The notes under the pieces were generated by a model that saw only the letters and a list, made by a program, of their open reading frames with translations, was not told the origin of the DNA and did no database searches. The position numbers and the translations under genes were made by a program. A DNA stretch of 63,951 bases, counting the filler, from Kipferlia bialata (lineage: Eukaryota), in the NCBI GenBank assembly GCA_003568945.1. It is 7 parts of 6 records of this genome, joined end to end, with 100 filler letters (N's around TTAATTAATTAA, not from the genome) between each part and the next. Parts side by side here need not be neighbours in the genome. Positions count along the whole stretch, not along the records: positions 34,613 to 47,154 come from BDIP01001072.1; 6 more parts are not named here. The stretch is one strand, 5' to 3'. Of this stretch, positions 8,010 to 63,838 are shown piece after piece; position 1 is the first letter of the stretch; each line of letters starts with the position of its first letter.

Positions 8010-8295
8010 CGCCTCTACTACTGATTCTCAAACCAGCGTGGGACTAGAAAGCCTTGCTGTTCTTTCAAAGCTGTCTTTGAAGTCAACATCGACTTGATAA
8101 ACCGTTTTTGTCTCACTCAGACTCAAATTGAGTCACTCAGAGTGACTCGGATATTCACTATATAACCTGTGATAACCGAGACGTAGTGCACACATACTGT
8201 ACTATACAGGTGGGCGACCGGTTGTAACTACCTCTGTTTTCAATTATTTATGTGTTTGCGGATATATACCGGTCGTTTCTATGGCACTGCACCCC

Positions 8296-12546: not shown

Positions 12547-12646
12547 NNNNNNNNNNNNNNNNNNNNNNNNNNNNNNNNNNNNNNNNNNNNTTAATTAATT
12601 AANNNNNNNNNNNNNNNNNNNNNNNNNNNNNNNNNNNNNNNNNNNN
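12547..12646. other. Artificial contig linker N44-TTAATTAATTAA-N44 (also 25191-25290, 30361-30460, 34513-34612, 47155-47254, 59778-59877)
   Basis: Identical 100-nt spacer with stops in all six frames, seen six times. Synteny across these points is meaningless. Confidence 0.97.
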
Positions 12647-17344: not shown

Positions 17345-17384
<40 letters not shown>

Positions 17385-18285
17385 TGTAGTATACGTTTCC
17401 TTACCCTCCAGAGCCGTTGAGACCTCTGCCATGCCCCCTGGGTACAAGAACAGGACCAACACATGGAGAGTGTGTGTGGACGCTGCTGCATATGCACCCA
17501 CTAACCCACTCGATCTACAGGTACGCAAATAGTATATATGGATTTCATATGTACTATACATATGTATGAATATTACTTCTTTTTCCACTGGATCTACATG
17601 TGACTACCCACTATATATAGAGAGAGGCGTGTATTCAGTAATAGTATGTACGTGTATATATCCCCTCACCCCAGGCCTTCCCCGCTGACTTTGTCACCAT
17701 GTCCTTCTACAAGCTGTTCGGCATCCCCACAGGCCTGGGGGCACTACTCGTCAGGTAGTCTAACGTACTCAGTCCCTATGTATATATGTTCTTTAACAAA
17801 TACATGGATTGATTACCCCCCCTCACCCAGGAAGGACGTGGCACTCTATCCACTCTACATTGTACTTATATGTACCTACATATGTTCCTATGTATTTATA
17901 TCTCCCCCTCACCCCAGGAAGGACGTGGCACACTACTCCACTGCAAGTAGTATATAATACTATAAATGTATAACCCCTTTGAATATATATACGTATACAC
18001 CCCCCCCCCTCACTCCCCAGGAAGGACGTGGCACCTTTCATGAACAAGACGTTCTTCGGAGGAGGTATTGTTAGTACATGCACAAATACACATATACCCT
18101 GTTTACGAGAGGAATACACACCATTATACTATTCTCTCATTGTCTATTGATTACCATTGTTGTCTATCTTCCCCCTAGATAATACATGCTTTGGACGAGT
18201 ATACACATATATGTTGTGTTTCAATAACACTTGGGGTGTCGTACAGCATTTGTCTCACCCCAAGGCACTGTCGTTGCCGTGTCCT

Positions 18286-18320
<35 letters not shown>

Positions 18321-18724
18321 ACATATCCCTTATATTCAATACCTTACACACAGGCACTGTGGTTGCTGTGTCCTGCGACTCCTCCTTCTGCAAGCTGAGG
18401 TGAGGCTAAATATATATATCGTGGTACGATATTACTCCTCTGTTTAATACTTCTCTGACCCCAGACCCATCTCCAACGAGAGGTTCGAGGACGGCACAAT
18501 CTCATTCCTCGACATCATTGGACTGAGGTGTGTATAGTACTCTAACATCGTATATATATATATATATATATACCAATATATATATACCTATATCAATACA
18601 TATATCTATCTATATACATGAATATATATATAAATCATTGGGCTGAGGTATGTTTGTTTGTTTTACAATACATGGCAGTCAACCAATCGCCGGCTACAAT
18701 ACCTTCAAGTCCCTTGGAAAGCAG

Positions 18725-18760
<36 letters not shown>

Positions 18761-20748
18761 TCTCTCTATCTATATATATCTAGTATTTTTGTCTCGTTTT
18801 AACGCTGGCTTCAACGTGTTTGAGTCTCTCTCTCTTTCTCTCGCTATTTCTTTCTCTCTCTCTACATGATGATATCTAATATCAGTGCTGGCTTCAATGT
18901 GTTCAAGTCCCTTGGCAAGCAGGCCATCACAGACCATGTCTGGACACTCACCAGATACCTCTACTTGAGGGTCAGCGCCCTCAAGCACAAGTGAGTATAG
19001 TTGTGGGTATACATATATACATACACTATTACATATTACTACTACTACGTGATCACGTATATATCTCAGAGTCAGTGCCCTCAAGCACAAGTGTACTCCC
19101 CACACAATATGTTGATATAGAGGACTATCTAGTGTAAATATTGTACTCCATATATCTAGTATTATCTTTCTTACCCCCAGGAATGGCCGTCCCCTCCTAG
19201 AGATATATGGCAACCACGAGCACGGAGACCCAAAGAGACAGGTACGTATTCAAGTCTTAGTTGTAGATTGCTGAGCACGGAGAGAAGTATTTATCCTACG
19301 CCATTGGAATGTACCACTTTTCATGTCTCACTCCAGGGCGGAATCCTCTCCTTCAATGTCCTGTCGCCCAAGGGGCAGTACGTGCCATTCAAGATTGGTA
19401 CGGTGTTACTTTACTTGTAGTTCTTGACATTTATATTAAGTGTATATATTACTATGTACATTTCGTGTTTCTTCCTTACCACCCAGTGATGGAGGCTGCC
19501 AAGACCTCCAACCTCATCATCTCTCCCCTGTCAGTGATTACTCCAACCATACTATGTTCCTCCATAAATGTATTGATATATCCATATACACTAACCCCCA
19601 GTGATGGAGGCTGCCAAGACCTCCAACATCATCTCCTATCCCCTGCCAGTGATTACTCCAATCATACTATGTTCCTCTATATATATGTGTGTGTATGAAT
19701 ATATATACTAGTATTCTTACCCCCAAGTGATGGAGGCTGCCAAGTCCTCCAACCTTCTGGAAATGCATATACAATGATGCATAACTCATGTGTGTAATCA
19801 NNNNNNNNNNNNNNNNNNNNNNNNNNNNNNNNNNNNNNNNNNNNNNNNNNNNNNNNNNNNNNNNNNNNNNNNNNNNNNNNNNNCTTACCCCCATCCTTAC
19901 CCCCAGTGATGGAGGCTGCCAAGGCCTCCAACCTTCTGCTCAGGGCAGGGGCACACTGCAACCCAGGGGCCGCTTTTGGGTACGGGTAGTGAATAGATAG
20001 TATAGTTTGGGTAGTGGATATACAATTAATGGTATCGTATTATATAGTATCACCGTATACTTCCGGTGGGTTCTAGTGGACGTTCAATTTATGATAGACC
20101 ACTCTATACTCTTCACCTTTCCATCCCGATATACCATTAACATGAGTAACTGTACCCATATATATGCATGTGCACCATGTCATTATATCCTTCCTCTCAC
20201 CCCAGCTACCTGACGATCGAGGAGGAGGACGTCCAGACAATTCTGCAGGTATACAGTAGTGTATATAGTATATTATATATATATATATATATATTATTAA
20301 CTATTCCCTCCGTATGTTATTATGTACTAGTGTACCATGTATGCAAGTACTGTGTCTCCCTAGCTGTACTATGTATACCTTGTGCATATAATATATATAC
20401 CTTACTCCAGGAGCGTGAGTCCTGCCACGCTGGTGACGGTATGTGGGAGGGCAAGCCCCTGGGTAGCTGCAGGGCATCCCTGGGGTACCCTACTACAGTG
20501 ACAGATGGTATGTGCTAATACTGATGAATGGAAGTCACGATTATATATGTTCACCCCAGTCGACAGGCTGACCACCTTTCCCAATACCTATGTGCTATTA
20601 TATCCATATGTATATTCATATAAATATATGTGTGTGTGTGTGTATGTATATGTGTTTGTGTGCACATACTCTCCTCACCCCAGTCGACAGCCTAACCACC
20701 TTCCTCAAGGCCACCTACACAGACAGAGACATGCCCAAGGATATGTAG
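14932..20748 (+). CDS. Molybdenum-cofactor-sulfurase-like (ABA3/MOCOS NifS-type, class V PLP) protein, about 21 exons, 5'-incomplete, no MOSC domain
   Basis: Exon peptides [88 protein letters not shown] (PLP Lys), [33 protein letters not shown]; stop TAG at 20746-20748. Confidence 0.9.
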
Positions 20749-25329: not shown

Positions 25330-26674
25330 CCTTCACTGGCCCTGGCACATCTGTCAGGTCAGCTGGGTCAGGGTTCTCGGCGATGAGGGCATCGGACCAG
25401 TAGTTGGCAGAGATCTTATCCTAGTGGTGAGCTGCATATATACATGATATCCTTGCATAGATATGAATATGTATATATATATATATACATAGAAAGAGTG
25501 ATGGTAAAATGAGGGCTTGTCCTATGTAATAAACGATAGACCCATGACTACATATGTGTATCCCCTGTCAGTCTATATATCTATATATGTCCATAAATAC
25601 CTTGGGGTCCGATGTGAAGTTGAGCATGTCGATGAAGTCGATGCTATATGATATAGTACACTCTCTCTCTATATATAGTAGATATACATCCAATACATAT
25701 TCATTCTGTATATACGCATATACGTATCTACCTTGGGGTCCGATGTGAAGTTGAGCATGTCGATTCTCATACAGAGTACACATTATTCACAATATATATC
25801 ACTCTACCTATCTATCTATACACATCTATCTCTCTATCCAGAAAGAGACTATATAGTACCTTGGGGTCCGATGTGAAGTTGAGCATGTCGATGAAGTCTA
25901 TATGTATATAGTGCATATACACCTTTACAGGTGTATATATATATATATATATATACTGTACTTCTATGTATATATATACCTTTGGGTCCGATGTGAAGTT
26001 GAGCATGTCGATGAAGTCGATGCTGGTGGCCTTGGCAACCTAGAGTGAGACCAAATGTATATGAGAAGAGAAAAAGAGTGACTCATTCATATAGGGCATG
26101 TCAAATGTGTATGAATACATTCAATTAGTGACATACAATGCATATCACCAACACATACGTACCTGTATCGTTGTGAATGCCCCATCCTCCTCCTCCACCA
26201 ATGAATGTATATATATATATACCATCCACTTGTACTTGTTATTGAGAATACCACAAAAAGTTGGTATATATACAATCATTCAAGCATCCATACACTGTGA
26301 ACATATCTACCTGTATCTTTGTGAATGCCCCGTCCTCACCGTTCATGCTATATATCTACCTTGATACTATACTATTAAAGTAAAATTGCGTTATAGTATC
26401 TATTCATCATACCTGTGTATACGCAATGTGTATAGCCTAACAGTGAATACCTGTATCTTTGTGAATGCCCCGTCCTCATCGTTCAAGCTATTAATCTGTC
26501 ATCATATAGTACTATAGTATATACATATGTATATATAGTATCTACTTAATATACCTGTATCTTCGTGAGTGCCCCGTCCTCATCGTTCATGGACCCAGAG
26601 GCATCGAGGGAGATGCAGACCATTAAGTTAGACAGATCAGTATAAGTAAGATGTACATACACATATGTCTAGTG

Positions 26675-26726
<52 letters not shown>

Positions 26727-28726
26727 TGTGCATGGACCCAGAGGCATCGAGGGAGATGCAGACCTATTGTGTAAGGCGGGAGTGGTCATTGTAGTAAAAG
26801 GGAGAGAGAGAGAGAGAGAGAGACATTGTTCATGGACCCAGAGACATCGAGGGAGATGCAGACCTAGGGGGTATGGGGAGTATATAATTATATACACAAA
26901 TGTGAATACAAAGCGAGAGAGAGAGAGAGAGAGAGACATTGTTCATGGAGCCAGAGGCATCGAGGGAGATGCAGACCTAGGAGTGAGAGGTATATATAAG
27001 AATACAAATACATATGTGTGTATATATGTAATATATATAGGGGGGGAGAGAGAGAGAGAGACATTGTTCATGGAGCCAGATGCATCGAGGGAGATGCAGA
27101 CCTAGGAGTGAGAGGTATATCATATATATATGAATGCATATATATATGTGTATGTAAGTAATTATATATAGGGAGCGAGAGAGAGAGAGAAAGAGAGAGA
27201 GCCATTGTGCATGGATCCAGAAGCTTCGAGGGATGCAGACCTAGTTACCAGAGGCTCTATAAACGTATAGGAGAGGAGAAGACAGAGAGAGTCATGTCTG
27301 CATTGTACGAGATATATAGTACACCGTGTACCTCCAGTGGCAGGAGCTGCTCGTCGGTGTTGCCATAGCCAGTGACAGTGAGGAGAACCTAAGAGTGAGT
27401 GTGAGGTATCAATGTCTAACACACACTCTCTATACGAATCCCTCTCAACGTGTAGAAGTACAATAATCTATATATATATTATATATTTATATTTATTTAT
27501 ATTTATATTTATTTATATTTATTCATATATATATATTATATATTTATATACATACTGTCATACCTCAAAGGTGTCGGGGAAGGGAGCATCAATGTCATTC
27601 CTAGAGTGAGAGAAGGACAAGTGATAAAAACTATATCATAAAGTGCCGAAAGTAGAATAGTGAGAATATGTCCACATAGTTTCAGATACCTCACGACAGC
27701 CGATGGTGTGACTGTCTGTGTGATCTATGTGTGAATATTGGCGATGGTCAGCTGCTTGATACATACACTCTCTGTCCACACATGTAGAAGTATATATATA
27801 TATATATATATGTGTGTGCATATATGTGTATATGTACATATATATATACCTAACTACAGCCGATGGAGTGACTGTCTTTGTGATGATCAGCTGCTTTGGT
27901 GGTAGGAGAGGAGAGTGAGGAGGGACAAAGGCAGGAGCTGGAGTCCTAATAATGAGTGTGGTAATAGTAATGGGTATATACTATAGATATCATTGTATTA
28001 TGTATATATATACATGTAGCTTCGGTGGAAGGAGGGGTGAAGGAGGAGGGACAACGGGAAGAGCTGGAGTTCTCTGGTTAGTGGTAACAACACATCTACT
28101 TTCTCTATATGTTCATATATATACATAAATACGCTAATAGGGAGGGGCAGAGACAACGGGAAGGACACGAGTCCTGTAATGAGGATGGAACAAGTAAGTG
28201 GAGTAAACATCACATGGGCATATTATATATATGTTGGTGTATAGTCACACATATGCCAATACCTAGCCTCAGGCTCTGTCCTTGTCAGCGGCTCTCTGTA
28301 TATGACCATACGTAGATAGATATATACATATACGTATATACTACACTATATACAACTTAGTTACCTAGCCTCAGGCTCTGTCCTTGTCAGTGGCTCTCTG
28401 TACATGGGCTTCTCGGGGTAGAAGCAGCGCTGGGGTGAGACGGAGGGTATAGAGTTCTAAACAAGACTAGTGTATATATTCAACAAGTATGTGGGTGTAT
28501 TATGTATGCATACCTCACTGGTTGGGCATGGTATGAACCGCATGGCACACTTATATATGTGTATATATGTACAGTGTTTATTATGGTATATATATGTATG
28601 TATATATACATTACCATATACCTTGCTAGTAGGGCATGGAATGAACCGCATGGCAGCACACTCCCCAAGGTCTGTGTCATAGAAGGGGGCCAGGCATTGG
28701 TCAGCATCGAAGAGAAGCTACTAGTT

Positions 28727-28772
<46 letters not shown>

Positions 28773-28811
28773 GGGCCAGGCACTGCTCGGCATCGAAGAT
28801 CAACTGAGTGT

Positions 28812-28856
<45 letters not shown>

Positions 28857-29860
28857 GGGCCAGGCACTGCTCGGCATCAAAGAGAAGCTAAGTGTTAAAG
28901 AGAGAGAGACATAGAGAGATACCATGGGCCTGTCTGAGTATATATTACGAATGCCAAGATTATTGTGTATACAGTATATGAATATACATATACCTGATTT
29001 GCCATTGGGCATGACCTGTCTGTGAGGAGTCATAGTCTGAATATACAATACTAGGTATGTAGTATATATACATATATGTACATATTCATATATATATATA
29101 TACATACTAATACCATCGGCCATTGGACAGCTCCTTGATCTGTCTGTGGAGTCATAGTCTGTGTATACTAATAAATATAGTGTATATAGTATATATATAT
29201 ATATATATATACATTCATATATATATTTATATAATACATTCATATATATATATATATATACTATTACCTGGTCTGCCATAGGACAGCTCTTGGCTCTGTC
29301 TGTCGAGTCATAGTCTGGGATGTAGACCAGGGAGGCATCGCCGTTACTGGGGGTGAGTACATGGTGTATATATACATATATATATAAGGAGAGAGGAAGA
29401 GAGAGAGTGGCTGGGAGGCATCGCCAGTGCTAGAGGGTTAGTACATTCAATTGTATTGATATATACATATGTATATACGGATAGAGAGAGAGAGAGAATG
29501 GCTGGGATGTAGATGAGGGAGGAATCGCCGGTGCTTAGGTTAGCACCCATTTGTTGATAAATCTACTCACAGTAGTCTACGCAGCCTAACCACACTCTTC
29601 ACCCGCTCTCTGCCAGATAGATAGGCATACTCTCTCGGTCTCCATATATATACTGTCACATATACACTATACCTCTCAGAGTCTGTGCAGACTGACTTCA
29701 GACCAGTGCCACTCTCTCTCTTTTCTTTTTCTCTCTCTATATATATATGTATGTATATATAGTACCTCTCGAAGTCTATGCAGACTGCCCTCAGTCCAGT
29801 CCCAGCCTCTGCCAGGTATGAGTGACAGGCAAGGGCATCATCATGCCACAGGGCAAGAGC
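25330..29860 (-). CDS. vWA (MIDAS DxSxS) domain-containing protein, internal fragment
   Basis: Exon 26620-26555 encodes VCISLDASGSMNDEDGALTKIQ, followed by VAKATSIDFIDMLNFTSDPK and DKISANYWSD, as expected for vWA beta1-alpha1-beta2. Upstream exons are Cys-containing, suggesting an extracellular protein. Confidence 0.7.
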
Positions 29861-29970
29861 TGAGATGAGATATAGATATACATGTATATATATGAAGAGA
29901 GAGAGAGTGTGTGTGTGTCACAGGCAAGGGCATCATCATGCCACAGGGCAAGAGCTGATGTTATACGTAT

Positions 29971-30001
<31 letters not shown>

Positions 30002-30624
30002 TATAGGAGTGACAGGCCATGGCATCGTCATGCCACAGGGCAAGAGCTACTATCAGAAGTAGAGAGAGAGAGAGAGTGTGTGTGAGAGAGAGAGAGAGAG
30101 AGGAGTGACAGGCAAGGGCATCACCATGCCACAGTGTAACGGTTGAAGTTAGTTATATAGATACTCATTTATACATATAGAGATAGAGACAGAGACAGAG
30201 CAAGAGAGCATATATATGTGTGTGAAGAGAGAGAGAGAGAGAGAGAGATGGTAGTCCATGGTATATAGACATACAACACGGCAAGAGCAAGGATGAGACA
30301 AATTGATATATAAGGAGAGGGGGGGGGGGGGGGGGGGGGGGACGCAAAACCCACAAGATTNNNNNNNNNNNNNNNNNNNNNNNNNNNNNNNNNNNNNNNN
30401 NNNNTTAATTAATTAANNNNNNNNNNNNNNNNNNNNNNNNNNNNNNNNNNNNNNNNNNNNGAGGAGAGAGAGGGGGAGGGGGGGGGGGGGGGGGGGAATC
30501 GCCAGTCTGCCTATTGTCAGGTATATATTTACAAAGAGAGAGAATCTGGACAGTCTACCTAGTGTGAAATGAATATATACACATCTCTATATATAACGAG
30601 AGAGAGAGAGAGGTGTGCACATAC

Positions 30625-34703: not shown

Positions 34704-37700
34704 GCGTCTCCACGCCTCCATACACTCTGTGCACTCACCCTCCATGGGACTGGGGTCAGGGAGAGAGAGGCCTATGTCTCAAGTGCGGAAGACACAGGTA
34801 TGGTGTTGTTCTATTCACGTGTATCTATATATGATGTGTAGATTCATTCCTACTGTCATATATACTCACTCTAGGCTATGTATGAGTCCTCTGTGCAGTC
34901 CATGCTGACCAGCTCTCATATCTATCTATCTATCTACCTAGATATATACATGTCTATACACTCACTCAAGGCCCTGTATGAGTCCTCTGTCCAGTCCATG
35001 CTGATAGGGGATATATATTTATATATAGTGTATATACATACTATCATATGTATACTAACACTAGGCACTGTATGAGTCCTCTGTCCAGTCCATGCTGACA
35101 GGGGATATATGTATCTATATTATATACATACCCACAAGTATATATATAGTATATATACCTACTATCATATATACACATATACTAACACCAGGCACTGTAT
35201 GAGTCCTCTGTGCAGTCCATGCTGACAGGGGATATATATATATATCTATATAGTATATATACATACTAATATATATACACACTAACACTAGGCACTGTAT
35301 GAGTCCTCTGTCCAGTCTATGCTGACAGGGATATATCTATATAGTATACATATCCACAAGTATATATATATATATAGTGACACTTACCCTAGGCCTTGTA
35401 TGAGACCTCTGTCCAGTCCATGCTGATAGGGGATATATATACCTTCACATATGTATATACACGTAGTAGTATGTATATATATAGTATATACTTACCTTAG
35501 GCCCTGTATGAGTCCTGTGTCCAGTCCATGCTGACAGGAAGTGATGAGACTACAAGTCAAGAGATGGAGGAGAGGAGAGTGAGGTATATATAGTGTATAT
35601 ATATATACATAGAGAGAGAGACAAAGGGGGAGAGAGAGAGAAAGACTGACCAGCCAAGAGATGGAGGAGAGAAGAGTGAGGTATGTGGTGTTTGTTTAGA
35701 GAGAGCGATAGAGAGTAAGATAGGGAGAGAGAGAGACAGGGACTGATTGGTGATGTGCATGAGAGGAGAGGGTATAGAGTATAGAGAGAGGGAGAGGGAG
35801 AAAGAGAGAGAAGGTCAGGGACTGACGAGCAATGATAACTCTTCTTCTGTCGCTCTCTATTTGTTGTGTACTATATATCCCTGTTACTTTCCAGTGTCTC
35901 TCCCTTCCTTGTATATCTATCCCTCACCACCCAGATACCTTGAGGACCTTGGCTATGGCGATGTGGCCAAGCAGATATTGGAGGTATACTATATGTATAT
36001 ACATGTAGTGAATACATGAATTATATTGTGCATACCTACAAGGCCTATGGCGATGTGGCCAAGTAGATATTGGAGGTATATATGTATATGTAGTCTCTAG
36101 TGTATATATACATACCCTTGTGAAAATCATGGTTTGAAGATGCTATGATGTCGCCAAGGAGATCATTCATTTGTGAAGAACAACGATACATTTGATTAGT
36201 TTGTGCACATACACACACGCTACCCCTCCCCTCACCCCCCAGGCCTCCCCTGCCACTATATGGATATATATATATATATATATATATCGATATATGAAGA
36301 CATATTACAGCTCTCATGCACTCTATATATCTGCACTCTACACCCACTACCCCCAGGCCTCCCCTGCCCAGCCCAGCCAGATACAGACACCCATCAAGAA
36401 GAGAGGTATATATATATATATTNNNNNNNNNNNNNNNNNNNNNNNNNNNNNNNNNNNNNNNNNNNNNNNNNNNNNNNNNNNNNNNNNNNNNNNNNNNNNN
36501 NNNNNNNNNNNNNNNNNNNNNNNNNNNNNNNNNNNNNNNNNNNNNNNNNNNNNNNNNNNNNNNNNNNNNNNNNNNNNNNNNNNNNNNNNNNNNNNNNNNN
36601 NNNNNNNNNNNNNNNNNNNNNNNNNNNNNNNNNNNNNNNNNNNNNNNNNNNNNNNNNNNNNNNNNNNNNNNNNNNNNNNNNNNNNNNNNNNNNNNNNNNN
36701 NNNNNNNNNNNNNNNNNNNNNNNNNNNNNNNNNNNNNNNNNNNNNNNNNNNNNNNNNNNNNNNNNNNNNNNNNNNNNNNNNNNNNNNNNNNNNNNNNNNN
36801 NNNNNNNNNNNNNNNNNNNNNNNNNNNNNNNNNNNNNNNNNNNNNNNNNNNNNNNNNNNNNNNNNNNNNNNNNNNNNNNNNNNNNNNNNNNNNNNNNNNN
36901 NNNNNNNNNNNNNNNNNNNNNNNNNNNNNNNNNNNNNNNNNNNNNNNNNNNNNNNNNNNNNNNNNNNNNNNNNNNNNNNNNNNNNNNNNNNNNNNNNNNN
37001 NNNNNNNNNNNNNNNNNNNNNNNNNNNNNNNNNNNNNNNNNNNNNNNNNNNNNNNNNNNNNNNNNNNNNNNNNNNNNNNNNNNNNNNNNNNNNNNNNNNN
37101 NNNNNNNNNNNNNNNNNNNNNNNNNNNNNNNNNNNNNNNNNNNNNNNNNNNNNNNNNNNNNNNNNNNNNNNNNNNNNNNNNNNNNNNNNNNNNNNNNNNN
37201 NNNNNNNNNNNNNNNNNNNNNNNNNNNNNNNNNNNNNNNNNNNNNNNNNNNNNNNNNNNNNNNNNNNNNNNNNNNNNNNNNNNNNNNNNNNNNNNNNNNN
37301 NNNNNNNNNNNNNNNNNNNNNNNNNNNNNNNNNNNNNNNNNNNNNNNNNNNNNNNNNNNNNNNNNNNNNNNNNNNNNNNNNNNNTAGGCCAGCCCAGCCA
37401 GATACAGACACCCATCAAGAAGAGAGGTATGCATATATACATACATTGTATGTGTATAAGGACTCAGAGAGTGTTATCCATGGGCAAGACTACCAGTATG
37501 GCAATGAAGAATAGGCATTGCATATATGGCAAAACATACTGTTCACATTCCCCCAAATAATGCTGATATATATATTTCTGTTATGTCCTCTTTCCCCTGA
37601 CCCCAGGTCGGAAACCTGGGAGTCTGGCCATTGTGAACAGAATCAGAGACAGGTACGAGTGTGTTGTATATGTATGTATATGTTCGGCCTAGTAGGACCA

Positions 37701-38605
37701 CTGGTTCACTCTACACATATCCCTACCCCCCGTCTAACCCCCCAGGATCAATGGCTCTCTGGCACGTGACCTCGAGGTAAGGACAGTACTGTGTACTTTG
37801 TGTGCAGTGTAGTATATCGTATTCACTATACACATAAGAGTAGTTCTTTCTGCTCTCCATTACTCTCTGGATAGTATTTTGGACGTTATGGGCACACAGC
37901 CTGATACTGATACTGATACTGATGTGCGCGTGCTTATATATATATGTGTAGTATGCACCTTACCGCAGGCCCTATCCCGCCGCCCCCTGTCCCAGTACAC
38001 TGAGTGCACAGACCAATGCATCAGACGCATATACAGCATACACGGTGGGTATTGAGTGTGATCTTCGTTTACCCTACTGTGATATTGCCTATTTGTGCCT
38101 CTCACCCCAGCCACCTATTATCCTAGTTCTATAGTTGTCTCTCTCTCTCTCTCTATCAATAGTTGTCTCTCTCTCTCTCTCTATCAATAGTTGTCTCCCT
38201 GCATATCGTCTATATTCATATCCCTCCCTCCCTATATTTTTGTCTCACCCCCAGCCACCTGTTCTGAGTCCCTGACTGCACTGCTCCACTCCCCAATGCA
38301 GGTGGGGTATATGGATTTGAGTACATATGTGTATGTAGTTATATTTACGCAATATATGTATATGTGTCTCTATGCCCGCACTGCACCACTCCCCAATGCA
38401 GGTATGGGGGATAGTACATTTTTTGTTCAACGGTGTATAGACACTATGTGCAGTATATATTTGTGGTTCAATTGTATTTGTATCCTCACCCCAGGAACAG
38501 TGTGTAAAGCAGGCCAGTCTCTCTCATATATATATGATATATATGTATATTCAGTATATATATCCATGCACTCTGACCCCAGGAGCAGTGTGTCAACCAG
38601 GCTAT

Positions 38606-38645
<40 letters not shown>

Positions 38646-40538
38646 AATATCTATATAGGCAGTATATATCCATGTACTGTATCTCACCCCCAGGAGCAGT
38701 GTGTCAACCAGGCCAGGGCAGGGGCCATACCAAAGGTGAGTATCAGGATACATACTACACAATTATCAGTATAACACAAAATACATATGTATGTTTGAAT
38801 ATGTATATGGGGCCAGGGCAGGGGCCATACCAGAGGTGACATGGATATATATGTGTATATACATCTATGGTAGAGTATTCTTATATGCACCTCCCTCACC
38901 CCAGGTGACTGTGCAGGACACAGCCCCACTGCACAGGGACAGGATGGACTGGCTCAACGATGAGGTAGATGCAGTGTATAGTATATATAGTATAGTATAT
39001 AGGATATATATAGTATATATACATATATCACTAGATAGGGACAGGATGGACTGGCTGAATGATGAGGTATGTACAGTGTATAGTATAGTGTGGTATATAT
39101 AGTATATAGTATACAGTGTATATGTATATATGCCACTGCACCGGGACAGGATGGACTGGCTGAATGATGAGGTGGGTATAGTGTATATATAGCTGTGTAT
39201 GTATATATAGAATATCAACAGGACCATTTAGCTCCCCCCATATATATATATATATATATATGCATTGTATAATACCATTTATGGAGCTCTCTCTCTCTGT
39301 TTATAACTACTATCATTAATCCCCAGGTTGTCAACAGGACCATGGAGCTGTACCTGGAGAACACAACGAGACGGTACGGGCATTGCTGTATACATATTAG
39401 AGTACCTTTTTTGTACTCCTCTTCCTCCTCATCTCTCCCTTCTTCTTTTTCTCTCTCTCTCTATTTGGCTAATCCCAGTGCCCACTGCTACTCCTCCTTC
39501 TTCTACCAGTCCCTGACCAGGACAGGGGGGTACAACTACGCAGCCACTAGGGTACGTCAGTACTGTATATACTGTATATATGTATATATGTAAATAGTAT
39601 ATATATATATGTATATGTGTGTGTATATGTGTATACCAGTCCCTGACCAGGACAGGGGGGTACAACTACACTGCTACCAAGGTATATACTATATGTATAT
39701 ATACACCTAAATATGCATATTGTATTGTCTTATTGTTGTACATGTGTAGTTGTGTGTAAGTATCTTACCCCTAGAGGTGGTCCTCCCGTCCCAATGTGTC
39801 CCTTGCCTGTCTCTCTATATATATACTTAAAGACATATCTCTCTTTGTGTATAGAGTGTATCTAACCCCCCGCAACCAAGGTATATTCTGTATGTATATA
39901 CACCTTAATTTGTTTATTATATTGTCTCACATCTAGAGATGGTCCTCCCGTGCCAAGGTGTCCAAATATCTATAATTTTATATCTATATAAGTATAGTAA
40001 TACATATATATATATACATCTAACACTAGAGATGGTCCTCCCGTGCCAAGGTGTCCATTGCTGACCTTGATGTGCTGTGCATACCTGTCAACTGGAACAA
40101 CACACACTGGACATGCATCGTGGCAGACTTCAGTCTCAAGGTATGTATATATATATATATTGGTATATAGTATGGGAATAGATAGTGTGTGAATATATAT
40201 TTGTGTGAATATATGTATATGTATACATACCTGTCATACATGTATTCATATTTATATACTCTATAGTAGTCTGTATATTCTTACCCTCAGTGCATCATGT
40301 ACTATGACAGTCTGGGTGGCATGAGGCCAGATGCAGTGTATATATATATACCGTATATACTATGTCTATATATATATGCCATATACCCTTAACCCTCAGT
40401 GCATCATGTACTACGACAGCCTGGCTGGCATGAGACCAGATGCATATATACGTATATATATATACCTTTTATTCAATGTAAACTGAGTATCTAACCTCAG
40501 TGCATCATGTACTACGACTCCCTGGGTGGCATGAGACC

Positions 40539-40569
<31 letters not shown>

Positions 40570-42183
40570 CTATATACTAAGTATCTAATAGCAGTGCATC
40601 ATGTACTATGACAGCCTGGGTGGCATGAGACCCGATGCAGTGTGCAATGTGGCCAGATACATACTGGACGACATACACGACAAGACACCGGAAATAGGTA
40701 AGAACTATATATATATATATATGTGTGTATATGATGATACTATATTCTATGTATATGTGGCCAGATACATACTGGACGACACACACGACAAGACACCAGA
40801 GATAGGTACAGGATTAACATGTATTTCCCATGCTCCCTCTCTCTCTCTCCCCTCACTTCCAGCCCTGTCGGACTGTATATCGGTATATCTCTCTATATAT
40901 GTGTATATATACTATATATATAGTGTATATGATCCCCCTCACCCCCAGGCCTTGACCTGTCAGACTGGGTTGGACTCGGCTACAAGGTGTGGTATTCTGC
41001 TGGACATATATTGTATATAGCTATCCAGATTGGTGGAGATTTATTATTGTTGCTGGTGCAAGGTATGGGAGAGGTGTAAATATATCTATGTGCTCTATAT
41101 GTATCCTAATATATATGTACTCTATATGTATCCTAACACCCCAGGTTGTGCAGCCCCTGCTGGACAAGTGCATTCACTCTAAATATGTATATATGTATAA
41201 TAACTAACGCATACACTGTATAGGTTCTTGTAGTATATATACTAACCCCAGGTTGTGCAGCCCCTGCTGGACATGTATCAGTCTTAATGTCTATGCTGTA
41301 TCTCTCTCTCTCTGCTTAATAAGCACCTATAAGCATTGCTTATGCCAGGTTGTGCAGCCCCTGCTGGACATGTGCCGGGGTCTGCCATACTCACACACCC
41401 TGGACATACCTAAGGTATATATATGACATAGATACTATATACAATATACTATATACTATATATACAAGTACACTATCGCTTTAGGTAGATATATGTATAT
41501 ATAATATATGATGCATATATGTGCCGGGGTCTGCCATACTCACACACGATGGACATACCAAAGGTATATATACATAGGATATATATACTATATATACAAG
41601 TACACTATAGCTTTACGTAGATATATGTAGATATATATATATGATGTATGTATGTGCCGGGGTCTGCCATACTCACACACCTTAGACATACCTAAGGTGA
41701 GTGTATATAGTACAAATACACAATAACTAGGAGTATAGGTGAGAGATGGGGGTTAGAGACAATAGATATCCCAATACTCAGGCCGCCCCCCCTCCCCCCA
41801 AGCCCCAGCCTGTGTACAGGGCACCGGTACCTGCCAGAAGACCAGTGCCCAAGGTATGTGTATGTGTATGTGTATGTATATAAGTACATACCCCAACCTA
41901 TCTCTCTATATTTATATGTATAATACATACATATGTATATGGCACCTGTACCTGCTAGGAGGCCAGTGCCTAGGGTATTTGCCTATCTCTCTCTATCTAA
42001 TAAGACCAGTGCCTAAGGTATGTGTATGTGTATATAAGTACATACCCCAACCTCTTTATATATGTGTTAATAATTAGTATATATATGGCTGCCAGGAGAT
42101 CAGTACCAAGGTACATATGTGTGTGTATCTCTCTCTACCTTTGTCTCTCTCACTATAGGAGGAGTCTGACGATGACTGCATCT

Positions 42184-42238
<55 letters not shown>

Positions 42239-42337
42239 AATCTCTATATCTCACCCCAGGAAGAGTCTGACGACGACTGCATCTCCTTTGACTGCTCCGA
42301 TGAGTATGGGGGGGAGGCAGAGGAGACAGACGACGAG
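34704..42337 (+). CDS. Ulp1/SENP (peptidase C48)-like protein with an AT-hook; many small exons, 5'-incomplete
   Basis: Spliced motifs DWLNDEVVN, CYSSFFYQSL...YAATRRWS, DVLCIPVNWNNTHWTCIVADF (catalytic His; Asp in VADF/YYDS region), CIMYYDSLGG; upstream KKRGRKPGS. The canonical QxNxxDCG motif was not found. Confidence 0.82.
34874..35540 (+). repeat. Array of 7 copies of acceptor plus exon 5' part (GCnnTGTATGAGTCCTCTGTsCAGTCCATGCTGA), period about 95-125 nt
   Basis: Copies at ~34875, 34970, 35064, 35191, 35291, 35393 and the intact exon at 35501, separated by AT-microsatellite spacers. Confidence 0.92.
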
Positions 42338-42564
42338 GTGGGGCAGTTATGTGTGTATCACTATATCTATAGATGTCCCCCCCCCCCCTCTCTCTCACTG
42401 TCCCGCCCCCTCCAACCTGGGCTCTCATGTAGTATATACCAGAATATATATATAATTATATATATACCCCCCCCCCCCCCCCCCCTCCCGTACTTGTTGT
42501 TTCCATATATGGTTCCCTGGCATAGTTTCTCTCTATGTGTCTGTCTCTCTCTCTTACCATCCAG

Positions 42565-43248
42565 ATGGTTCTCTCACTAGGAAAGTTCCCTGAGACCGAG
42601 AGCGTCAACCTCGAGAAGCTAGGTAACTCTCTCTGTCTGTCCTCTCTGTCTCCCTATATTGCCCTCCATATGTACATTATATACTTGGCACATACTGTGT
42701 ACTTCGCCTTGACCTCAATGGCTTGGTACTTTCTCTCTGTTCTATCTCTGTGTCTCTGTGTATATGCGGGTTCATACACTCTTTGTCCTCTGTACTGTAG
42801 TACTCCATTCTCTCCTCTCTCCCCTGTCTGCTTGCCGAAGGTATCTCTTCTGTCACCCATATATATATCTTACCCCAAGGCATGCCCCCCCCCCCTCTCT
42901 CTCCCCATCTCTATCCATCCACGCGTATATGTACTATAACTCATACACCTCCCTTCTGTCTCTCTCTAGACCCTTATTCTCAGGCAGCCGCAGGATGGAC
43001 TCCGCAGACAGGGGTGCCTTCAGAGGCGCCACAGTCGCAAGGTACCATACATGTATGTATGTATTTCTGTACATATTAAGAGGGAAGGGGGAAACAGTGA
43101 CATTATATAAGTGTCACCATTTCATTCATTTCTTTTCTTTTGTATGTGCCCTCAGTCTCTCTTACCCCCCCCCCCCCCCACGGGATGTCACCTTCACCCC
43201 ATTAATAATTTTCCCTCTCTTTCCCCATTTTCTGAGTGAATACATGAT

Positions 43249-43287
<39 letters not shown>

Positions 43288-43921
43288 GCCCCTTATTCCC
43301 AGGGATGCCATGGTCAAGGCACTCAAGGAGAGAGGAGCAGGTATGATATCTGAACATATTTATATGTATATCTATATATATTGTGTATAGGAGAAGGGCG
43401 TTTACGCAGGATATGGATAAGTGTATATGAAGGCAATCAAGGAGCAGGTATGATACATGTATGGATATATATATATATAGTGTAATGATTGCCCAATGAC
43501 GTACCATGTCATATATATATATATATATATATCTACACCCCTAATGTCAGACAAGGCCCTTGTTCACATCGAGCAGTACATCCCCCACCTGCTTGCCATC
43601 CAGGTACCTTATTCTAATGATTGCCACCTTATTCTAATGAGTTCCATATATACATTTGCATACGTATGTGGAATGAGGTACTCATATTATATAGAATGCA
43701 CTAATCCAATAGAACTGGGTGAAGGAGCACCGGTTCAGTGAATGTTCAGTTGCATAATAATATTACTATTTCATAGGTGTATAATTTACACTATTCTAAT
43801 GGGCGCTAGCACTAATCCAATAGAACTGGGTCAAGGAGCACCGCTTCAGTGAGGACAAGGACAAGAGCAGGCAGTACGGCACCATGCCCACATTCAAGTG
43901 GAAGTCATGCCTCAGGTATGG

Positions 43922-43959
<38 letters not shown>

Positions 43960-46292
43960 TGTACTTGTATGTATTCATTTAGACATCTTAAATACTATGT
44001 AGACTATATAACTATAGGCAGGCTAGTGAAAGTCATGTCTCAGGTACAGCTAATCTAATGATACTAATCTAATGAGTGTTGTTGCATATTCTATAGACCC
44101 TATTCTAATGACCTTATTCTAATGACTTCAGGTCCAAGAACAACTGGCACGGTGTGGCCACCCTCGAGTACGAGTACCTCATGGTGGTCTACGCCAAGGT
44201 ACTCCCCCCCCCCTCTCTCTTTACACCGATAGCTCTCTCTCTCCCTCTACACCCTTATATTCAGGCCATGTGTCTCATGGACTCCGCTGCTGACAAGATC
44301 AGGGTCATCGACAACGAGGCCAACGTGGGTATGTAGTAATTTCTCTCTCTCTCTAGAGAACACTATTAATGTAATTTTGTCTCCACCGTTGCTCTCTCTC
44401 TCTCTCTCTCTACACCCCTAATATGTAGGTGAGAACTACACCGTTGCCTCCAAGCAGCTCTGCCAGGCAGCTGGATTGTTCATGAAGGTCAAGGAGCTGT
44501 CCATCGAGCAGGTAATATAGTATATATGTATATGAATGTATATACATATATATATGTATGTATGTTGTATTTACATAAATATACATAATGAATTGTAGAT
44601 ATTATATTTTTATAGTTCTTGGACTGTTCATGAAGGTCAAGGAGCTCTCCATTGAGCAGGTATACACTACATAGTATATAGTATATATGTGAATTATTTA
44701 TATAGAGTTTCATATTGATTTATATGAGACTTGGTATACTGGACTGTTCATGAAGGTCAAGGAGCTCTCCATTGAGCAGGTATGCACTTTAGTATACAAT
44801 GTATATATATATGCTAATTGTATTATATATTCTAATGTCCAGGGTTCCATGGTTGCCGGCCACCCCCTCATCATCATATATATATATATATATATGATGT
44901 GTTGTTCTATATTCTAAAGAGTTCTCTACATACATGCATTTATATGTATACACATATAATTATTATTACTTTTTATTATATACAATTATTATGACTTTAT
45001 TATTATACATACTCCATTTACCCTCCAGGGCTCCATGGTTGCCGGCCACCCCCTCATCATGATACCCGTGGTGGCAGACTTCATGCTCAGGTACTGTATA
45101 TAGAGTATATCCACAACAGCGGTCCCCCCCACAGCCTCCCTCATCCTCACCCACCAGTCTCTCCATTCTCTCTCTCTCTCTCTCTCTCTCTTAGACCCTT
45201 AATGTCCAGCCTCTCCATTGCCTACGCCGAGCTCTGCAGAGTCGAGAACAACATCCGGTATGTGAATATGAGTATCCTGCTTCCCTTCTCTCTCTCCCCC
45301 CCCCCTCTACACCCTTATTCCCAGTGCCCTCCTTGAGATCAACGATGCCCCCAAGTCTCTCTCTCTCTCTCTCTCTCTCTCCTCGTCTACACCCTTATTC
45401 TCAGTGCCCTCCTTGAGATCAACGATGCCCCCAAGTCCCCCAAGATGAACCTCACACTCCCTAGGGTGTGCAAGGACATCCAGGTGTGTATTCACATAAA
45501 TACATACATATGCAAATTGTAAAATACAATTACATATATGTATCTATATATGTATTCTACTTTATATATATGTGTGCATATGGACCCAAGATGAACCTCA
45601 CCCTGCCTAGGTGTGCAAGGACATCCAGTTACTCTCTCTGTCTCTGTCTCTCTCTCTCTATTATTACTATTGATGTGTGTATAGTAGAGTTGAGAGTTAC
45701 TCTAACGACCAGAACAAGCTGCAGCAGGCTGCCTTCAGTGTGCAGGCAGTGGCCGCCCAGGACTGGCAGGTATGAATCTCTCTCTCTCTTACTCTTAGTC
45801 CATCAACCCTGCCATCCGTGACTCCCTCGACTACTTCTCTCTCCCTCTCTCTCTCTCTCTACACCCTTATCTGCAATAACATCAGTCCATCAACCCCGCT
45901 ATCCGTGACTCCCTAGACTACTTCAGCCAGGTGGCAGAGATCATCTCATGCTGCTTCCAGGGCAGGTATGTGCATGCATGAAGTAATTATACTTTGAATT
46001 AGGGTGTAAGCCACATACATACACTTAGTATATGTACTGTATATATATATTTCGTCCTCTCGCTTACCCTCCCAGGCACCACTACTCCCTTATAGTAGTA
46101 TATGTATATGTATATGTAGTATTCTAATGATCAGGCACCACTACTCCCTCAAGGAGACCATGGAGGGTGGAGAGGCACAGTGCGTGGGAAAGGCACTTGC
46201 CTACATGAGGTATGTATTGTATATATATATATATATATACAGAGAGAGAGGCACAGTGCGTGGGAAAGGCACTTGCCTACATGAGGTAGATA

Positions 46293-46330
<38 letters not shown>

Positions 46331-46858
46331 TGCGGAGGCAGGGCACTTGCATACATGAGGCATGTTATTTTCGCCCCTCTCTCCCTCTGTTTCCCTCTTT
46401 CTCTACACCCTATCTCTCTCGCACTACACCCTTAATGTCAGGAGGGCCAAGGAGGTCAGGGATGCCCTCAAGGCACCCAAGGGGACAGACAAGGTATGTA
46501 TATGTATAATTATGTATATGAATGTATATACATACCCAAGGGGACAGACAAGGTATATATATGTGTGTGTATATACATATATTCTCAGTCTGAGAGGCAA
46601 CAAGATCCCAACATTCATTAACGAGAGTATTGTATTCTTTATAGTGTATCTGTTTTATTTTGTGTTAATCTGGCACCTATCTAACCACCTAGATCCTTGC
46701 CAACCGTTACAATGACTTGTGGCCAGTCTATCTCTCTTTCTTTCTATGTGTGTATGCTATTCTCACAATAGATCCTCTACAAGCGCTACAACGACGTGTG
46801 GAGAGGCAACAAGAAGCAGGCGTCTCTGCTTGACGGGGAGCTGGCTGAGTACGTTCTC

Positions 46859-46893
<35 letters not shown>

Positions 46894-46996
46894 CCTCTAC
46901 ACCCTTTTCTCACCCCAGGTACGAGGAGAAGAACGGCAACATCTACCACCACCGTGTCCCATCCACCCAGAACATCACATTCCCCGCTCCATACAG
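42565..46996 (+). CDS. BRO1-domain (BROX-like) ESCRT-associated protein, 3'-incomplete
   Basis: Spliced peptide includes FPETESVNL, IEQYIPHLLAI, PTFKWKSCL, TLEYEYLMVV, ASKQLCQAAGLF, LSIAYAELC, CVGKALAYMR and YEEKNGNIYHHRVP, matching the BRO1 FxW, YE, AAGxF and NxxIYxxxVP signatures. Confidence 0.85.
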
Positions 46997-59939: not shown

Positions 59940-60961
59940 GGAACTTTGACCATCCATATTGAACAGGTCATCCCTATGAGTAAAATGTATACATATACCG
60001 GCATGCAGAAAGGAATGGTAACTAAGAACACACAATGAACAGGTCCCAACGGAAAAGAGATATTCAGAGTCACTAGGAGTAATGAAACAGGGCAGATACT
60101 AATATAGGCATAGAGAGGAAGGGGGGGGGGGATAATGGATAAGATGGGGGACACTTAGAAGGGGAGGGGGGGTGTGCACACGTACTTGTTGCTGAATCTG
60201 ATGATGTTGTCGGATGCATACATAAACAGGCATATAGACAATGAACATTCAGTGAGCAGGCCCCAATGGATAAGAGGTATTCAGAGTGACACGTACTTGT
60301 TGCTGAATCTGATGATGTTGTCGGGTGCGTTGGGGTTGTTGGCTGTGAGCATACGGGTCACCTCCTCATCAAGCTCCTTCTCAGACAGGGGGACCTAGAC
60401 ATGAGGCAGAGAGGGAAGAAAGAGCACGTAAAAAGCACCTGGTGCAAATATATTATACTGAGATGTATTCATCGCTAAGTCAGTGCCCAACGTATCAGAC
60501 AGAGGATACTCCAGGCACAATAGACTATGAGACTATTGGTATACTCGCCAGTACTAAGTCTAGTTCTCTGCCCATAACAATCCATAGACTAGTAAACCAA
60601 AACCACCCCCACCATCCATTACCACCCCCATACACACCCTCCTCTGGTATAGACACCCTATCCATGCCTAGACACTACCTGGTTCTTGGGGATGATCACA
60701 TTGGCCTGGGTGGTCTCAGGGGTGTCCTTGTCGGCTCTGCGGCGTGCAGGCCGCCTAGCAGCCTTGCCCTGAGGTTTCTTCTCCTATTGTGAGCATAATA
60801 GAGTGCACAACCACGCCAAAACAGCAGGAACAACGAAAGCGTGTCACAGTTCACCCATTCTTAGGCACTCACTGTGCTCAAATCCCCCCCTAGAACCATA
60901 AAATACACTAAGCATGTGAAAGAGTTACCGATTCCAGCTATACCTGGGGAACTGGAGCCAT
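59940..60961 (-). CDS. DNAI1: Outer-arm dynein intermediate chain 1 (IC78/DNAI1), 5' part only
   Basis: IIPKNQ|VPLSEKELDEEVTRMLTANNPNAPDNIIRFSNK matches the recalled DNAI1 N-terminal motif (ELxEExTRxLTANNPxAPxNIxR). The first exon (MAPVPQ, ATG 60961) is tentative. Confidence 0.85.
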
Positions 60962-61099: not shown

Positions 61100-63838
61100 A
61101 TGCAGATTGAGAAGAACGAGAAGGGAGGAGGTGAGACAGTTAGTTAATATGTATATTGCCAGATTTGAGGTAGTTGTAGAAGGCAGAGAAGGGAGGTTCT
61201 TAAACAGAACGAGTGTAATGTTGTTTTGTCGTCTCTAGAGCTCAATGTACTGTATTTGGGTTATATTGCTGGTATTATGGGTGAGCAGGGCCATTTTTTA
61301 CACTTACTTGTCGTGTTAGGCGGTGTAAGTAGTGTTTCAGTTCATATATGAGATGACACTGATTTGGTTGATACTGGTACAATACTTGTTCAGACAGACT
61401 GGGACTAGGTCAGAGATCTTCCATTCGATTGTCTGTTGTCTTACTCGTAAGTTTTGTCTGCTCTTGTGTCTTCTAATGCAATGTATACGTACATATATCA
61501 CCCCACTTGTCTCTCTCTCCCTCACCTGTCAGACCTCCTCTTCTGTGGGTTCAACCAGGACAATGGGTGCATTGCAGTCGGAACCAAGGTGTGTGGTCAT
61601 ATAGCACATGGTACCATGACTTCCTTCTCCGGTTGTGTTGAGAGGGAGAGTCGGGCAAGTGTCAATATGCTATATATCACCTGTCATCTACTCGCACCCG
61701 GGTCTCCCATGACAAATATTAATATACCATCTCATATGTATACTGACACCCAGGTTGGGTTCCGCATCTTCAACGCCGACCCCTTTGTGCGTATGTTCAG
61801 CAGAGACATTGCAGGACACAAGGGTATGTACATTTGATATGTCACACGCTTATCTATAGGTGTCTCATGGTTAAAGAGTACTTATCCTCAGTCGACATCC
61901 GCTCCAGACAAGGCTCTGGAATTAATATATATCCTATTTTCATTCATCTTAGCTCTATTCAGTACTTATCCTCAGGCGGTATCCGTTCCGTTGAGATGCT
62001 GTTCCGCACCTCCATCCTGGCCCTGGTCGGGTCATCTGTCTCACCCCCATACTCCCCACACAAGGTATTATATGATTGTATGGATATCTCTCATGTAGAA
62101 GGGTACTATCTGTGTCACCCCCATACTCCCCACACAAGGTATGTAATGGGTAGGGGCATACTCTATGTATATCCCTCTCTTCATATACATATATATATAT
62201 TTCTGTTTACTAATACTGACCCCAGGTTGTCATCTGGGATGACCACAACAGGCGCATCCTGGGAGAGATCAACTTCAGGTATGGAGTCCCATATGTGTGT
62301 ATTTCAGGGACATATATATATGTATGAGTAGTGCTAGTGTGTGTTTTCATATTATGGTGTTACTATAGATGGTTTTTCCTTCTGCTGCCCCTCACCCCCA
62401 GGTCCATGGTCCGTGCTGTCAAGCTGAGAAAGGACAGGTATGTGGATGAAAGAGACACATAGCATATTTATTGCTACTCGTAGATAGATATATGTATATA
62501 TACAGTCTCTCACCCCAGGATCGTGGTTGCTCTCAAGCAGAGGGTGTACGTGTACTCCCTGGCAGACTTCTCCTTGATCGACCAGGTTTATATACATATA
62601 TATATATTGACAATAGTACATATACACACATATATATATATATATATTAATAGTACTGGTATTAGTGCATAAGTGTACTCCCTGGCAGACTTCTCCCTCA
62701 TTGACCAGGTATAGATGCAAATATAGATGCATATATATATGTATATATATACATACTAGAAGTATATGACTTTGTGTATATGTGTACCCCCTGGCAGACT
62801 TCTCCCTCCTTGACCAGGTATATATATCCATATTATTGAATTCTTATATACTAATACTGGAGGATACGTGTGTGGTATATTTAGGGTTGTTAATGTGTTT
62901 ATAGAATACTCCTAGGTATAGCACTCACCCCCCAGATTGAGACCCTTGACAATGAGCTGGGTCTCCTTGCCCTGTGTCCATCCACATCCACGGCATCGGT
63001 CATGGCATGCCCAGGTATATTATATATATATGTATTGTATGTATATATATATATACATATGGGTGTATATACATGTGTGTATATATACATACCTATCCAC
63101 ATCCACGGCATCGGTCATGGCATGTCCAGGTGTATGGTATATACTATATACTATATGTATTATATATATACTAAATGGTACTCCCTCTATATATATATAG
63201 GATGTGCCCATTCACATCCACTGCATCGGTCATGGCATGCCCAGGTGTATATACGTTATAGAGGCATCTATATATTTATAGTTTATACTCTCATTCTCTG
63301 TCCCCCCTCACCATCAGGCATCAAGGCTGGTCAGCTCCGTATCCAGACCATATATATTTATATATGAGTATATATAGATCTATCCCTCACCCCTAGGCAT
63401 CAAGGCCGGCCAGCTCCGTATCCAGACATCCTCCTCCACCCCTCTCTTCATAGAGTGCCACCAGACTGCACTCCAGGTATATAGATATGTATATATACAT
63501 ATATGTATATGTACTCTATACTCCCCTTCTTTTGCACCCTATCTTCATAGAGTGCCACCAGACTGCACTCCAGGTATTTTCACTCTGAGTTGAATACCAT
63601 TATCATTGAGGAATACATGTGTTCATATTTGTGTATCCATATTTGTGGTAACCCTCACCTCCAGTCCATCTCCGTCACTCTGGATGGATCCATGGTGGCC
63701 ACAGCAAGTGTCAAGGGTATGTGTATGTGTATAGTATTCTCATTGTCTGTGTCTCATATACTTGTATATATATATATATATATATAAGTATATGTGGATA
63801 TATGGATGGATCCATGGTGGCCACAGCCAGTGTCAAGG
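61100..63838 (+). CDS. ATG18: PROPPIN (Atg18/WIPI3-4/Hsv2-like) WD40 protein, 3'-incomplete
   Basis: MQIEKNEKGG|DLLFCGFNQDNGCIAVGT, GFRIFNADPF, VEMLFRTSILALVG, KVVIWDD, VRAVKLRKDRIVV, IETLDNELGL, IECHQTAL, DGSMVATASVKG. The F/LRRG motif lies beyond the window. Confidence 0.9.

Follow-up and report, generated by a model that had tools for sequence, protein, structure and literature searches.

Several kinds of tandem copying at exons have been described, and they differ in what is copied and in what becomes of the copies. In mutually exclusive clusters of the Dscam type each tandem copy is a complete exon with an acceptor and a donor, and the copies are used; silent cassettes, such as those of Neisseria pilS/pilE, Borrelia vlsE and the trypanosome variant surface glycoprotein (VSG) genes, vary the amino acids of one surface gene. 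Closer to the subject of this paper is internal (intragenic) tandem duplication (Gao and Lynch 2009, as cited in passages of PMC3443670), and the same passages describe intron gain by tandem genomic duplication of AGGT, in which an exonic segment is duplicated and then spliced at an in-register AG/GT. Here we analyse a 63,951-nucleotide (nt) stretch of the genome of the fornicate Kipferlia bialata (assembly GCA_003568945.1), hereafter the window, in which an exon of an Ulp1-like gene is surrounded by differently encoded partial copies of itself. We call such a copy, in which one edge of an exon is repeated in the adjoining intron, an echo: a 5' or start-anchored echo repeats the beginning of the exon, a 3' or end-anchored echo its end. 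Echoes resemble internal tandem duplications in being short, intragenic, head-to-tail copies that include splice signals and exon sequence, but they differ in their frequency (63 of the 101 exons that we curated), in their narrow unit size, in having given rise to neither an additional intron nor an additional exon where RNA was available, and in showing protein-level constraint beyond neutral decay. Internal tandem duplication is already known; its window-wide part in building introns, and the signature of protein selection in the copies, we have not found described.

The Ulp1-like exon drew attention because the initial annotation had read four versions of its beginning in tandem. Four exon-start copies are indeed present, at 40291, 40400, 40501 and 40595, each right behind an AG with a branch-like motif, and their codons are those given by that annotation: in copies 1 to 4 Tyr is TAT/TAC/TAC/TAT, Ser is AGT/AGC/TCC/AGC, Arg is AGG/AGA/AGA/AGA and Pro is CCA/CCA/CCC/CCC, with a single amino-acid replacement among the starts, Gly to Ala in copy 2. 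The 3' echo at 40755-40805 likewise shows the changes ascribed to it (CCG to CCA, GAA to GAG and Ile to Thr) and has GT at its end. Copies 1-3 resemble the intact exon over 49, 45 and 42 nt only, beyond which lie TA repeats. The array is mosaic, because all four two-site combinations occur at the Tyr and Pro sites across its copies, and it holds more codon haplotypes than two alleles could, as had been argued. It is also far beyond chance, since our detector found one match in 503 control pairs of an exon with a foreign intron.

Two sequencing runs bear on whether the array is real and on how it is read: run X1, apparently DNA, and run X2, apparently RNA, from both of which contigs were placed on 40578-40705. 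X1 contains 0.97 of 311 words sampled from 39000-42000, and X2 contains 0.10. One 1,438-nt contig from X2 crosses the working exon with no differences; its loose ends are the last 30 nt of the preceding exon (to 40140) and the start of the next (40949), that is, the edges of the neighbouring exons, so the contig is spliced and all four Ulp1 echoes are skipped. Variant copies did not appear there: in the sole X2 contig 40140 is followed directly by 40595, and 40697 by 40949, and contigs lose rare forms. X1, possibly the assembly's own source, gives one contig over the whole working exon, again with no differences, and its contigs end at TA runs on either side. A 693-nt X1 contig has the 3' echo with the flanks seen in the window, at a depth of 462 against 372 for the working exon; contig support reaches this 3' echo only, and echoes 1-3 were not recovered by placement even in the DNA.

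The array proved to be one instance of a general pattern. All statistics that follow refer to this window only, where ungapped echoes were sought in the introns on either side of 101 exons, curated from 13 gene segments. The curated set omits genes with long exons (about 5-14 kb and 51.7-56.6 kb), the majority of exons at 0.6-5.4 kb and some at 30.5-33.6 kb, the gene on the minus strand at 59.9-60.8 kb and a single exon adjoining an N gap near 24.1 kb; echo density is possibly inflated by the choice of intron-rich genes. Thirty-four of the 101 exons were checked against the annotated protein and all 34 match, and the remainder rest on open frames and GT/AG ends. A self-comparison of the window gave 183 near-diagonal pairs, and the search around curated exons gave 131 echoes at 63 exons, in 83 families. 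The array is one of these 83 families and not a property of Ulp1; by itself it is unremarkable in this genome.

The geometry of the echoes is strict. Every one of the 66 start-anchored echoes lies upstream of its exon and every one of the 56 end-anchored echoes downstream, with none on the wrong side and nine internal, and none of the 131 is a whole-exon copy anchored at both ends. Echoes have a median length of 32 nt and units of 106 nt (quartiles 93-122, n=130), and intron length follows 136 + 100 x echoes (r=0.90, 87 introns). Arrays of one to six copies number 49, 21, 7, 1, 0 and 1, a roughly geometric fall-off, and 30 of the 63 within-array pairs share a free end, where 8% would be expected. 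Free ends tend to merge into a TA/TC repeat; repeat continuity over the free end, in period-2 repeats, is 1.50 against a null mean of 1.02 and a null maximum of 1.24 (300 shuffles). The echoes are tandem duplications across splice junctions, with units that have been re-duplicated. They behave as dead copies would in that their units are same-strand and head to tail, and all 122 anchored echoes lie where a junction-spanning duplication would put them. Duplication of whole exons with later truncation can be rejected, as it would leave the wrong-side copies that we do not see.

What they do not share with ordinary dead copies is the kind of difference that they have accumulated. Echoes differ from their working exons at a proportion of 0.248 of synonymous sites (pS) and 0.046 of nonsynonymous sites (pN), which gives a pN/pS of 0.19 (0.14-0.24, 95% bootstrap over the 83 families). 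Mismatches number 375, distributed 86/52/237 over the three codon positions, and 231 of them are silent; the synonymous bias reported for a single array therefore persists in the larger sample of 131 echoes, with 237 of the 375 mismatches at third positions. The four echoes of the Ulp1 exon have a pN/pS of 0.13 and the other 127 echoes one of 0.19, and the silent bias of the Ulp1 array is typical of the rest. Neutral simulations, in which a dead copy next to a fully constrained exon was trimmed identically to the data, returned a pN/pS of 0.44-0.53 in a first set (450 replicates) and of 0.42-0.45 with closer divergence and AT-biased mutation (400 replicates), with a minimum of 0.30 over all 850. 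Since the observed value lies below all simulations, the echoes descend largely from protein-selected sequence: over most of the time that separates them, the copies were working sequence. Nor do the flanks agree with simple neutral decay of a dead copy, the 20-nt flanks of echoes being 58% identical, against 48% for unrelated flanks and 91% for the exon part. Divergence of the exon part and similarity of the flanks are not correlated (rho -0.05).

Further comparisons point the same way or qualify it. Between pairs of echoes pN/pS is 0.26, and divergence does not rise with distance from the exon. The 106 non-stop replacements are conservative (mean BLOSUM62 +0.29 vs -0.44, z=4.7), and the five genes that are recognisable have a pN of 0.032, the remaining ones a pN of 0.061 (p=1.5e-4), pS being equal. 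Some neutral decay lies on top of the inherited divergence: stop codons occur in six echoes, and 13 of 122 splice dinucleotides are lost or out of register. Directional decay towards AT is weak (third positions 89 vs 65, p=0.06). As a separate, post hoc and pseudo-replicated observation, arrays with at least two echoes have a silent divergence of 0.35 in the 9 nt next to the junction and of 0.15-0.18 deeper (p=0.0004), an excess not seen in single echoes.

The splice signals are mostly intact. AG is retained in 58 of 66 start echoes and GT in 51 of 56 end echoes, and the branch motif is found in 41 of 66 echoes, compared with 78 of 101 working acceptors and 78 of 949 random intronic AGs. At those 78 curated acceptors the motif reads CT[ACT]A[CT] N1-8 AG, which places the branch point close to the 3' splice site; a similar proximity is known for Giardia and Trichomonas introns. 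The exon at 26620-26555 (minus strand, with echoes to 27243) is peculiar in that its sole full-length copy is preceded by TG rather than AG, while the four nearest upstream 5' echoes have AG; a non-canonical acceptor, an assembly error or use of an echo are all possible.

Set beside the systems introduced above, the echoes match none of them fully. As in AGGT intron gain, tandem duplication involves splice-site-like sequence, but an in-register AG/GT is present in only 6 of 122 echoes and in none of the Ulp1 array, and echoes lengthen existing introns, so the creation of introns by tandem duplication was rejected. Mutually exclusive clusters also offer several differently encoded tandem versions under purifying selection; they were rejected because no echo is anchored at both ends; the one RNA contig, in which rare forms would be lost, uses one copy. 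Silent cassettes, too, are unexpressed partial copies that adjoin an expressed site and show mosaic variation. Echoes, by contrast, lie in housekeeping genes across the window, and their changes, in 11 gene segments with counted differences, are mostly silent or conservative, which disposes of an antigenic cassette. We found no description of the echo pattern in the open literature, taken without supplements and subscription papers: the main text of the species genome paper, as far as available, has no match for 'duplicat' (PMC5874029), passages of that paper, PMC6679479 and PMC10711314 do not mention the pattern, and PMC9860276 does not name the species.

The reading that we prefer, and to which we give slightly better than an even chance, is that echoes are cross-junction tandem duplications of about 100 nt, often born and often lost, that were copied from divergent working alleles. 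The initial annotation had suggested repeated capture or conversion; capture from working sequence is the part that survives as the best reading, while conversion in cis falls away. Steady-state reasoning, as distinct from simulation, gives a pN/pS of 0.5-1 for conversion between an echo and the neighbouring exon, against the 0.19 observed, and neither cis conversion nor collapse within a single lineage would be expected to push the ratio under about 0.5. If all pN were due to decay it would imply a pS of about 0.10 of the 0.248, so about 0.15 would have been supplied at birth; copying from alleles would imply a synonymous diversity of about 0.15 or more. With silent diversity of that order, homologues would align well in their exons alone. 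Unequal exchange, or repair by one-sided invasion, would begin in the exon, about 100 nt of the other allele would be copied across the junction, and rejoining would take place by microhomology within an intronic microsatellite. Alternatively, a sister-derived copy could soon be uncoupled from its exon by recombination, and in one genome sister duplication with recombination would look identical to inter-allelic repair. Neutral decay would follow for a brief period, adding no more than about 0.045 changes per site; echoes would also re-duplicate, and they would vanish by collapse between repeats. They would be tolerated because an exon edge with a single splice site gets skipped, and no function is proposed for them.

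Dmc1 tolerates mismatches, and a more specific version of the proposal, which we offer tentatively and regard as possible rather than probable, is that introns are largely built of roughly 100-nt modules from other alleles through mismatch-tolerant, Dmc1-only repair without non-homologous end joining (NHEJ), the genome thus archiving past alleles. According to passages of PMC8516963, NHEJ is missing from metamonads, which depend on homologous repair, and Rad51A is missing from the fornicates examined, in which two Dmc1 paralogues occur; k-mer data suggest that K. bialata is diploid (passages of PMC5874029). If donors were alleles, inbreeding or homogenisation must have affected these loci in the cultured strain; otherwise past hybrid partners would have been the donors.

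Several observations weigh against copying from divergent alleles. The implied diversity equals the highest on record, 13-20% (passages of PMC8270832), and the open literature yielded no report of sex or of recombination between strains in Kipferlia. X1 shows no divergent second allele, one contig covering the exon, with the limit that echoes 1-3 are missed as well, and proteins P0001 and P0004 (the latter the annotated protein of the Ulp1-like gene) are each the sole member of their 90% cluster in the protein collection. The evidence from spliced RNA comes from one exon only. Variants private to one echo are silent in 45 of 87 cases, modestly above the neutral ceiling of 41% (p=0.025); the four-gamete test is violated in only 1 of 8 informative site pairs window-wide; and the predicted replacement gradient along the echo is absent after trimming bias is removed (p=0.15). 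No second isolate came to light: a metagenome scan yielded one locus from 180 candidates, 52% identical over 1,165 nt and from a different species, and a 619-aa frame used as query gave no match.

Four other explanations have to be weighed against the same data. The echoes might themselves be used, entering mRNA by non-canonical joining or collapsing onto the exon in DNA, and so be under purifying selection; this would account for a pN/pS that is also low between echoes with a common free end (0.24, 30 pairs), for the retention of most splice dinucleotides and branch motifs, and for the finding of 4 gaps in 4,080 aligned nt, although ungapped detection undercounts gaps. We consider it unlikely. 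The RNA contig takes the intact copy at the one exon concerned, no echo covers a whole exon, stops or lost in-register AG or GT mark a fraction of them, and collapse would remove mutated and unmutated echoes alike, so that nothing would be purged. Allele capture is favoured because direct use lacks support at the tested exon and only 6 of 122 echoes, none of them in the Ulp1 array, could be joined cleanly by canonical splicing. An improbable variant, to which we give about the same weight, keeps the mechanics of duplication and takes as donors a few long-diverged homologues or hybrid subgenomes of a mostly asexual diploid that was later homogenised. No present-day hyperdiversity would be required, a diploid showing a single allele at the tested loci would be expected, and the scarcity of recombination signals (1 of 8) would fit; three states in 9 of 124 variable columns, and a per-echo pS that runs continuously from 0 to 0.76 (67 echoes with at least 7 synonymous sites), however, suggest more than two donors.

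Ordinary dead tandem copies, with constraint on the working exon alone producing the silent bias, explain the polarity, the stops and the lost splice sites, and part of the divergence is neutral decay, the excess of private silent variants over the neutral model being modest. They nevertheless predict a pN/pS of 0.42-0.53 and at most 55% third-position changes, against 0.19 and 63%, which is beyond all 850 replicates; flanks that resemble each other roughly as much as the exon parts do, against 58% and 91%; and neither conservative replacements nor gene-specific pN of the size seen, so that, unless the simulations overlook a large effect, we hold this account to be very unlikely. Least credible of all is an assembly artefact in which haplotypes of a mixed or heterozygous sample were placed in tandem. 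The draft is built from short reads, the introns are rich in microsatellites, and X1, possibly the source of the assembly, has contigs that stop at the TA runs flanking the working exon. Against this, no working gene could have junctions between echo and junk among its alleles, yet a separately built contig again shows the 3' echo and its flanks, at comparable depth (462 vs 372), and X1 has 0.97 of the sampled words. Moreover, the published assembly size equals the k-mer estimate, with TruSeq libraries for which no amplification step is named in the available passages of PMC5874029, and frames are open throughout the curated exon chains.

The host gene deserves a word of its own. One open reading frame of the window is 100% identical, over 89% of its length, to a protein listed under K. 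bialata. Exons of the Ulp1-like and BRO1 parts match the annotated K. bialata protein P0004, which contains all 34 of their peptides and has profile matches to Peptidase_C48 and BRO1. Residues 187-299 match Peptidase_C48 (E=3.2e-16) and show the HW and YYDS motifs, so that the C48 domain of the Ulp1/SENP family is present with its His and Asp. Ulp1/SENP proteases further carry a catalytic Cys in a QxNxxDCG-type motif. Unlike in these proteases, the match of P0004 ends at profile position 144 of 217, and no such Cys motif was seen by eye in P0004, the RNA contig being read only 30 nt into the next exon. From the sequence, the protein may possibly be a pseudo-protease, or an exon may have been missed (40949-41414, plus strand; P0004 residues 300-340). 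The public annotation merges the Ulp1-like and BRO1 coding regions (34704-46996, plus strand) into one 764-aa protein, P0004; an ATG at 42565 opens a segment, and the two may perhaps be separate genes.

Features of the Ulp1-like exon array and of other echo-bearing genes in the window
Feature	Coordinates	Strand	Description
5' echo 1	40280..40339	+	Branch/acceptor and first 49 nt of exon, from 40291; ends in TA repeat
5' echo 2	40388..40444	+	Branch/acceptor and first 45 nt, from 40400; has Gly to Ala
5' echo 3	40491..40542	+	Branch/acceptor and first 42 nt, from 40501; Ser is TCC, not AGC
Working exon, YYDS motif	40595..40697	+	Sole copy found in spliced RNA; P0004 residue 270
3' echo	40755..40807	+	Last 51 nt of exon (40755-40805) and GT donor; no acceptor
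Next exon	40949..40986	+	Joined by RNA contig to working exon 40595-40697
Upstream Ulp1-like exon	40030..40140	+	HW (catalytic His) motif; Pfam Peptidase_C48 E=1.9e-4
Ulp1-like gene	34704..42337	+	18 curated exons, 29 echoes; 18/18 exon peptides in P0004
BRO1-domain gene	42984..46996	+	16 curated exons, 14 echoes
21-exon gene	14932..20748	+	Open frame; 20 echoes; presumably molybdenum-cofactor-sulfurase-like
Gene of unassigned kind	25331..30134	-	25 echoes; five 5' and three 3' around exon 26620-26555
9-exon gene	61533..63838	+	Open frame; 8 echoes; taken to be ATG18/WIPI-like

Within the Ulp1-like gene, 5' echoes at 39775 and 39937 belong to the upstream exon, and an array of six echoes (34874-35430) precedes the exon at 35501-35583. 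The longest echo in the window is an unusual 3' echo at 58932-58844 (minus strand), which repeats 89 of its exon's 128 nt; the second longest has 56 nt. Between about 3.8 and 14.8 kb the self-comparison gave no echo pairs; the minus-strand region at 7359-12235 is GC-rich with long exons and has a weak MIF4G match (E=0.006), possibly that of an eIF4G-like protein. Repeats at 60026-60290 and 32952-33294, spaced 217 and 144 nt, are tied to no curated exon and are possibly duplications confined to introns or intergenic sequence. The TTAATTAATTAA linkers within N runs at 12591, 25235, 30405, 34557, 47199 and 59822 are contig joins, so that sequences on either side of a linker are not true neighbours.

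What we have not found described is internal duplication as a main building block of introns, with dead copies that keep a signature of protein selection. Whatever the origin of the echoes, the spliceosome has to pass over decoy sites that fit the consensus well and lie about 100 nt from the true ones. Gene predictors may call echoes exons, as a simple predictor did in this analysis. Were the echoes used after all, they would represent an unknown mode of gene expression. If modules are indeed captured from other alleles, this would explain much of intron length, at about 100 nt per echo and amounting to millions of bases if the window is typical, and it would point to hidden recombination, and to diversity at record level, in a free-living fornicate. 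Should the copies be snapshots of alleles, the fornicate repair kit with no NHEJ, no Rad51A and two Dmc1 (passages of PMC8516963) leaves a visible footprint in the genome, one genome is enough for population genetics, including the ratio of replacement to silent diversity (piN/piS), and tests for sex or for exchange between homologues come within reach in a neighbouring lineage of Giardia. Introns would then record past recombination and diversity, if the echoes came from divergent working alleles.

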